NCBI RefSeq assembly: GCF_013122565.1
Contig: NZ_CP053258.1
Reading direction: 5' to 3' (one strand)
DNA from: Escherichia coli
GTDB lineage: Bacteria; Pseudomonadota; Gammaproteobacteria; Enterobacterales; Enterobacteriaceae
DNA: 64,000 nt
Shown here piece after piece: positions 45,592-45,840 of this stretch. The notes beneath the pieces were generated by a model. The model ran no database searches and was not told the origin of the DNA. It saw only the letters and a list, made by a program, of their open reading frames with translations. Made by a program: the position numbers and the translations under genes. The first letter of the stretch is position 1. Each line of letters starts with the position of its first letter.

Positions 45592-45612
45592 AGTGTTGCC
45601 TTTTTGTTATCA

Positions 45613-45642
45613 ATAAAAAAGGCCCCCCGATTTGGGAGGCCT
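45613..45642 (-). terminator. pheA attenuator terminator
   Basis: Minus strand reads ggcctcccaaatcggggggccttttttatt: GC-rich hairpin plus U-run between pheL and pheA. Confidence 0.8.
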
Positions 45643-45689
45643 TATTGTTCGTCTTCGCATTCTGTTTCACACGACGAAACGCCTCCCAT

Positions 45690-45737
45690 TCAGGGGAAGG
45701 TAAAAAAGAATGCGAAGAAAAACGGTGTGTGTTTCAT
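45690..45737 (-). CDS. pheL: pheA leader peptide PheL (15 aa, Phe-rich)
   Basis: Minus-strand atgaaacacacaccgtttttcttcgcattcttttttaccttcccctga gives [15 protein letters not shown]; 7 of 15 codons are Phe. Confidence 0.85.
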   Translation of the reverse strand: [15 protein letters not shown]

Positions 45738-45840
45738 GTTTGTTTCCTTAAGTGACTTTAGTACAGTACCCGTACTGTTTTCACGCTGTCAACAAAAAAC
45801 GCGCCCGAAGGCGCGTTGGCGATACACTCAATATAAAGGA

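Follow-up and report, generated by a model that had tools for sequence, protein, structure and literature searches.

The window, a stretch of Escherichia coli DNA 64,000 nt long, contains a seemingly "empty" gap of 249 nt between raiA and pheA. Does this gap carry the pheL leader and the pheA attenuator, are both intact, and are they those of the classical K-12 system in every respect? A sequence-only reading had said so, describing a short leader ORF, a downstream hairpin and a U-run exactly as in classical attenuation.

We are nearly certain that 45592-45840, read on the minus strand, comprises the promoter, leader and attenuator of the E. coli pheL-pheA operon, acting through ribosome-mediated transcription attenuation. 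The interval is an already known element, intact and ordinary. Its recognition accounts for the raiA-pheA gap, and matters little beyond correct annotation. As far as sequence can indicate, an intact attenuator would place phenylalanine biosynthesis in this strain under normal attenuation control.

Genomic context

The raiA-pheA intergenic region is exactly 45592-45840, and all of its features lie on the minus strand; the sequence-only reading had given no strand. It is bounded by the last base of the raiA stop codon at 45841 and by the pheA ATG at 45591, both on the minus strand. The genes around the interval are:

42117..43256, plus strand: aroF position, DAHP synthase by NCBIfam model
43267..44388, plus strand: tyrA, TyrA by NCBIfam equivalog model
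44431..45591, minus strand: pheA, bifunctional chorismate mutase/prephenate dehydratase, 386 aa, intact (NCBIfam equivalog NF007910, 824.3 bits, cut-off 577, residues 1-386 of 386)
45841..46182, minus strand: raiA, 113-aa ORF (NF007654, 255.7 bits)
46453..47190, minus strand: bamD, BamD by NCBIfam equivalog model
47325..48305, plus strand: rluD, RluD by NCBIfam equivalog model

This order (aroF-tyrA / pheA-pheL-raiA-bamD / rluD) is canonical for E. coli, and RefSeq genomes are annotated in the same way. PheA is full length. Two of its residues, I181 and D364, are V and E, respectively, in the K-12-type protein, and the gene has 21 nt differences; such divergence is ordinary at the strain level.

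Of 5426 complete E. coli genomes, 5425 have the 249-nt interval, in each case on the chromosome and in one or two copies. Identical E. coli stretches carry the RefSeq labels "pheL" and "Phe leader region". The Rfam family Phe_leader (RF01859) matches 45738..45613 on the minus strand (E = 8.2e-25), its 132.2 bits standing well above the family's gathering score of 55; the match spans model positions 1-125 of 125, untruncated, and no other Rfam family rises above threshold here. The full-length Rfam match, the RefSeq annotation on identical DNA, the complete PheA and the canonical neighbors together bear out the earlier claim of an intact leader and attenuator. With only 15 codons, pheL is an ORF that gene callers often overlook.

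Six further Rfam matches (Arrc14, sraA, STnc130, ctRNA_p42d, MicX and sX6) were dismissed, all being below their gathering scores with E values of 0.1-0.9. Between raiA and bamD, at 46352..46444 on the plus strand, the sraA small-RNA model gives a weak match (E = 0.36) whose 26.8 bits fall short of the gathering score of 56. This stretch terminates in a hairpin and U-run, and the sub-threshold match is most likely just an intrinsic terminator.

Leader peptide and alternative helices

The leader elements, in order of transcription, are:

45690..45737, minus strand: pheL ORF by translation, ATG at 45737, 15 sense codons including seven for Phe (FFF-A-FFF-T-F), then UGA
45722..45714, 45710..45702 and 45698..45696, minus strand: Phe codons 6-8, 10-12 and 14, respectively, by translation
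45647..45723, minus strand: 1:2 protector/pause hairpin; 5' strand 45723..45694 (Phe-codon run to CCCC), 3' strand 45687..45647; -31.2 kcal/mol
45678..45688, minus strand: antiterminator 5' strand (segment 2 core), UGGGAGGCGUU, from masked folds; begins 2 nt after the pheL stop
45619..45643, minus strand: 3:4 terminator hairpin, RNA AAGGCCUCCC-AAAUC-GGGGGGCCUU, DNA AAGGCCTCCC-AAATC-GGGGGGCCTT; -18.5 kcal/mol
45615..45620, minus strand: U6 run, predicted end of the attenuated transcript, from the sequence and a terminator scan; the first two U are paired in the stem

Translation of 45737..45690 (minus strand) confirms the proposed 15-codon leader with its seven Phe codons. The proposed GC hairpin and U-run are likewise present: the terminator scan finds a 10-bp stem at 45643..45619 (minus strand) with seven G-C pairs, a 5-nt loop and then TTTTTT. 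From the U-run to the pheA ATG (45591) is 23 nt.

Three pairings compete for these segments. The 3' strand of the 1:2 hairpin includes the antiterminator segment, and its apex pairs CCUUCCCC with GGGAGG. In the 2:3 duplex, UGGGAGGCGUU pairs with AAGGCCUCCCA (45643..45633; -17.1 kcal/mol), the core being UGGGAGGC (45688..45681) with GCCUCCCA (45640..45633). UGCCAGGC is a designed altered form of this UGGGAGGC segment. The antiterminator 3' strand (45643..45633) is at the same time the 5' arm of the terminator together with its first loop base. As isolated helices the three have comparable energies (2:3, -17.1; 3:4, -18.5; 1:2, -31.2 kcal/mol). By its own account the sequence-only reading would have been refuted by the absence of an antiterminator pairing; that pairing, UGGGAGGC with GCCUCCCA, is present, and the reading is not refuted.

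Both the unconstrained minimum free energy (MFE) fold and the centroid are the terminated conformation, 1:2 plus 3:4, in agreement with the Rfam consensus structure. The 126-nt leader RNA has an MFE of -51.7 kcal/mol, against -28.3 +/- 3.5 kcal/mol for dinucleotide shuffles (z = -6.76), and none of 200 shuffles was as stable.

The pheL ORF ends with ACC TTC CCC TGA (45701..45690, minus strand), so that UUC_CCC_UGA, a sequence known to be shift-prone, occupies 45698..45690. The +1 frame entered from the pheL end runs from 45691 to 45536, 51 codons through the attenuator, as it does in K-12. In both the window and K-12 this frame stops 53 nt beyond the A of the pheA ATG; the distance stated for E. 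coli is 80 nt (PMC3082878). In E. coli K-12 this ending yields about 15% +1 frameshifting, which the same authors regard as incidental to pheA control (PMC3082878).

A predicted ribosome-dependent switch

Does a stalled ribosome exchange one fold for the other? The ribosome was represented by a mask whose edges lay 15 nt upstream and 12 nt downstream of the A-site codon's first base. In masked folds of the full-length leader, A-site positions at codons 1-4 or 12-16 left the terminator almost fully formed (probability about 0.999). Positions at codons 5-10 lowered its probability to 0.002-0.15, and an antiterminator took its place.

A co-transcriptional version cut the transcript after the terminator loop, before the 3' arm. 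Here the terminator 5' arm GCCUCC is captured by UGGGAGGC with a probability of about 1.0 when the A site is on codons 5-13. Capture falls to about 0.1 when the ribosome is absent or sits at the start or stop codon, as 1:2 sequesters segment 2. Moving the footprint edge to +9, +12 or +15 left this switch unchanged, and only one of 300 dinucleotide shuffles of the 48-nt stop-to-terminator segment mimicked it.

The same cut-transcript pattern was obtained for the window and for all 65 orthologous leaders, representing more than 20 genera (medians 0.998-1.000 versus 0.06-0.14). Full-length equilibrium folding had also been tried as a switch test across orthologs, where only 34 of 66 masked leaders favored the antiterminator. 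It was judged the wrong model, since the choice to attenuate falls before polymerase has made the 3' arm, and cut-transcript folding took its place. The modelled switch is convincing only in this kinetic form, before the 3' arm exists. All three alternative pairings that the earlier reading had proposed to look for by folding are thus present, and 2:3 is predicted upon stalling both here and in the 65 orthologs.

Conservation and covariation

Orthologs were retrieved by scanning genome contigs with the peptide pattern FFxFFFTFP, which gave 120 loci. In 65 of these a PheA homologue (68-98% identity) follows 77-242 nt downstream of the match. The remaining matches, about 55, were discarded as chance occurrences in unrelated phyla, with no pheA downstream. 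The retained loci come from Escherichia albertii, Salmonella, Citrobacter, Enterobacter, Klebsiella, Kluyvera, Leclercia and Lelliottia; from Cedecea, Pluralibacter, Siccibacter, Shimwellia and Trabulsiella; and from Pantoea, Erwinia, Mixta, Serratia, Rahnella, Rouxiella, Yersinia, Pectobacterium, Brenneria and Photorhabdus. All 65 have FFF[A/V/S]FFFTFP upstream of pheA, a conservation that is partly one of selection, since the retrieval pattern required FFxFFFTFP.

The window and these 65 leaders from other Enterobacterales were aligned. The terminated fold (1:2 plus 3:4) is paired in 95.6% of cells, and compensatory double changes occur at five pairs (53 cells). None of 500 shuffles reached this score, and slid controls had at most 60% of cells paired, a comparison biased toward the aligned structures, which were derived from the window sequence. 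For the 22-pair helix of 1:2 alone, 93.7% of cells are paired and three pairs show compensatory double changes; for example, GCAUUC/GAAUGC is replaced by GCUUUC/GAAAGC or GUAUUC/GAAUAC. For 3:4, 97.9% of cells are paired and two of ten pairs covary (A-U or G-C in 33 and 28 sequences; C-G or U-A in 52 and 13). The terminator core GCCUCC(C/U) with its T-run is present in 65 of 65 orthologs, and at least five T follow the hairpin in all 66 leaders.

The antiterminator is paired in 90.9% of cells, versus 40-55% for slid controls in the same 66 leaders. Its GGGAGGC core occurs in 64-66 of the 66, and none of its pairs shows a compensatory double change, a result that follows from this near invariance. 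Support for the antiterminator therefore comes from conservation and thermodynamic modelling rather than covariation. Likewise, no three-way covariation links the antiterminator, the terminator 5' arm and the 3' arm, with the exception of one G-U-tolerant change. At column 108 the terminator C is U in 13 sequences; its 3'-arm partner changes from G to A, and the antiterminator G stays. Because this G then forms a G-U pair, both alternatives are preserved. The core GGGAGGC/GCCUCC is presumably so nearly invariant because it must serve three pairings at once.

Could these elements simply be chance neighbors, an untranslated short ORF beside a constitutive or bidirectional terminator? Small ORFs are common (the surrounding 6 kb has 89 ORFs of at least 20 aa, and pheL has only 15 codons), and no promoter passed the consensus scan. 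Chance would nevertheless have to supply a full-length RF01859 match of 132 bits, together with an FFF.FFFTFP ORF, 1:2 stem and terminator that are jointly conserved upstream of pheA in 65 loci, the stems with compensatory changes. A separate raiA terminator is already present at 45817..45798, and a constitutive terminator 23 nt before a gene of an essential pathway, with no other promoter, would silence pheA. Moreover, translation of pheL is already implied for K-12 by frameshift measurements (PMC3082878). We give this explanation next to no credence; judged on sequence, neither the covariance-model score nor the joint conservation, with its covariation, is compatible with chance juxtaposition.

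Some leaders depart from the common plan. The stop codon directly follows TFP in 62 of 65 orthologs. In a Trabulsiella odontotermitis locus (L123, 8064-8192, minus strand), CCC CAG replaces CCC UGA, and the resulting 23-codon leader ORF runs across the antiterminator 5' strand. Two others (L007, L026) have one extra Asn codon and then a UAG stop. The spacing from pheL stop to pheA, about 98 nt in E. coli, is 133-242 nt in L044 (Serratia oryzae), L033, L108, L029/L052/L116 (Rahnella) and L015/L063 (Yersinia). The Yersinia loci also have long, divergent 5' regions upstream of pheL, and in some Yersinia IS1541 lies between pheL and pheA (PMC3082878).

The promoter region

Upstream of pheL, the interval contains:

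45798..45817, minus strand: raiA intrinsic terminator by terminator scan, 8-bp stem AACGCGCC/GGCGCGTT, loop TTCG; outside the attenuator, and inside the interval delimited by the sequence-only reading
45787..45792, minus strand: inferred -35 element of the pheL-pheA promoter, TTGACA, from sequence; nearly invariant in orthologous upstream regions
45778..45763, minus strand: perfect palindrome ACAGTACGGGTACTGT, 7+7 with a 2-nt center (ACAGTAC-GG-GTACTGT), containing the putative -10 element
45763..45768, minus strand: putative, weak -10 element, TACTGT, 18-nt spacer, 3/6 consensus match
45745..45749, minus strand: Shine-Dalgarno-like AAGGA, 7 nt 5' of the pheL ATG; GGA is kept in most orthologs

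The T-run of the raiA terminator (45797..45791) merges into the -35 TTGACA, and the junction (45817..45787, minus strand) reads GCGCGTTTTTTGTTGACA. This tight arrangement is kept in most of the orthologous upstream regions examined from Enterobacteriaceae. A sigma-70 consensus scan of 45400-46300 called no promoter, because the -10 hexamer matches at only three of six positions. The perfect TTGACA and its conservation, along with the 3/6 hexamer, nonetheless point to a pheL promoter here; a TAC(T/G)T(T/G)T-like motif is conserved at the -10 position among orthologs.

The boundary between the raiA terminator and the pheL promoter appears to be an integration site for prophages or islands in some E. 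coli, judging from the layout of one locus. In E. coli 1604D011 (NZ_CP149553.1; L004, 1-1500), pheL is directly preceded by a phage integrase gene and an HTH gene; the sequence becomes identical to the window again within the raiA terminator (CCTTCGGGCGCGTTTTTTGTTGACA), and the record contains the opening part of the query a second time. The window itself has no insertion at this boundary.

The palindrome raises the question of whether pheA is controlled mainly by a DNA-binding repressor acting at ACAGTACGGGTACTGT (45778..45763), over the -10 element, with the leader secondary. A perfect 7+7 dyad with a 2-nt center, overlapping the putative -10 element, invites this idea, and an operator at this very dyad, with a "pheR" repressor, was once proposed. 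pheR was later found to be a tRNA-Phe gene, and the present analysis identified no protein for the role. Conservation also separates the two halves. The right half, which is the -10 element, is widely conserved, and Serratia, Pantoea, Rahnella and Pectobacterium retain that half only; the left half is confined to Escherichia, Citrobacter, Salmonella and some Enterobacter or close relatives, whereas the attenuator elements are conserved in all of the genera named here, including those that keep only the right half. Because its left half is absent beyond close relatives, the palindrome is probably incidental and not a conserved operator. We consider control mainly by a repressor very improbable, and retain attenuation as the main control.

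A natural polymorphism at codon 4

Comparison with K-12 pheL, another check that the sequence-only reading had proposed, shows 248 of 249 nt identical to an O16:H48 (K-12-type) genome and a single difference at 45727. This base changes pheL codon 4, which is ACA (Thr) in the window versus ATA (Ile) in K-12. The description "exactly as in the classical system" thus holds for every structural element and fails for the peptide, through codon 4 alone. The RefSeq pheL protein on identical DNA, WP_001386991.1, is a record separate from the K-12 allele.

Exact matches to a 71-nt probe centered on 45727 were counted in complete E. coli genomes. The window haplotype occurs in 2874 of 5422 genomes and the K-12 haplotype in 1383, which makes the classical K-12 leader peptide a minority allele. 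Thr4 (ACA) and Ile4 (AUA) divide natural E. coli about 2:1 or more. Codons 2-5 of pheL are hypervariable across the 65 orthologs, with T, I, V, F, D, K, L, R, Q and others at position 4, and the changed base sits 5' of all predicted helices.

A minor tRNA-Ile decodes AUA, a rare codon. Conceivably, AUA at codon 4 of the K-12 leader slows ribosome loading or clearing and so shifts ribosome-polymerase coupling and the basal pheA set-point, the window allele being a "fast" ancestral form. With the A site on codon 4, the predicted probability of arm capture is 0.10, 0.46 or 1.0 depending on the footprint assumed, and this codon stands at the edge of opening the 1:2 hairpin. We rate an effect on the set-point as improbable; if it were true, classical K-12 measurements would be unrepresentative. 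For those who alter the attenuator to engineer phenylalanine overproduction, the practical point is that most E. coli have ACA at codon 4 and K-12 has ATA.

A model for attenuation in the window

In the proposed mechanism, transcription would begin from the TTGACA promoter, and the first ~125 nt of RNA would hold the pheL ORF and the three mutually exclusive pairings. Ample Phe-tRNA would let the ribosome run on to the UGA; segment 1 would then pair with segment 2, or the ribosome would cover segment 2. With segment 2 unavailable, the terminator 5' arm would be free to pair with the 3' arm (3:4), and RNA polymerase would stop at the U-run before pheA. A shortage of charged tRNA-Phe would stall the ribosome on codons 6-12, so that it occupies segment 1. 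UGGGAGGC would then be free to pair with GCCUCCCA as soon as the terminator 5' arm is made (2:3); no terminator would form, and pheA would be transcribed.

The response of pheA to phenylalanine, the transcription start and polymerase pausing at 1:2 enter this model from the literature or by inference. The K-12 model has polymerase pausing after segment 2 owing to the 1:2 structure (PMC3082878, Fig. 1). In vitro, polymerase pauses at pheL with a half-life of about 17 s, and NusA lengthens the pause 1.9-fold (PMC9291695). With ample phenylalanine in K-12, the ribosome reaches the stop codon and 3:4 forms; with limiting Phe-tRNA the ribosome stalls, 2:3 forms and pheA is on (PMC3082878). Basal pheA expression in K-12 is about 10% of the starved level (PMC3082878). 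Because 248 of 249 nt are identical to K-12, pheA expression in this strain would also be expected to rise when charged tRNA-Phe is limiting. None of the checks made gave evidence contradicting the attenuator explanation.

Might the terminated leader transcript (~140 nt, ending at the U-run), besides its role in cis, act in trans as a small RNA? The product would be stable and highly structured (z = -6.76), with a Rho-independent terminator, and it weakly resembles Arrc14, an Actinobacillus sRNA model (27.7 bits, E = 0.29). This match is, however, far below the gathering score of 99 and overlaps the much better Phe_leader match, so it most likely reflects a related Phe leader. A role in trans is highly unlikely, and nothing in this analysis supports one. 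The leader RNA is best seen as the cis-acting attenuator.

Comparison with known systems

The closest relative is the E. coli K-12 pheL-pheA system itself (RF01859; PMC3082878, Fig. 1). The two share locus, neighbors, length, Phe codons, UUC_CCC_UGA, the 1:2, 2:3 and 3:4 pairings and the U-run; they differ in the one base at 45727, ACA versus ATA at codon 4. Gurvich et al. (2011; PMC3082878) describe Group-1 enterobacterial pheL genes that end in CCC_UGA, and the window has the same UUC_CCC_UGA ending, with no difference. Group-2 pheL leaders, as in Vibrio and Shewanella, have another antiterminator sequence.

The logic is also that of trpL, hisL, leuL, thrL, ilvL and pheM (of pheST): a short ORF rich in cognate codons is combined with a pause/protector hairpin, with an antiterminator and a terminator that exclude each other, and with a U-run. 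Those leaders have unrelated sequences and belong to other Rfam families. Unlike the other E. coli amino-acid attenuators, pheL has as its antiterminator 5' strand the 3' side of the 1:2 apical stem, 2 nt after the stop codon. Because of this position, a ribosome at the stop codon would directly mask the antiterminator strand.
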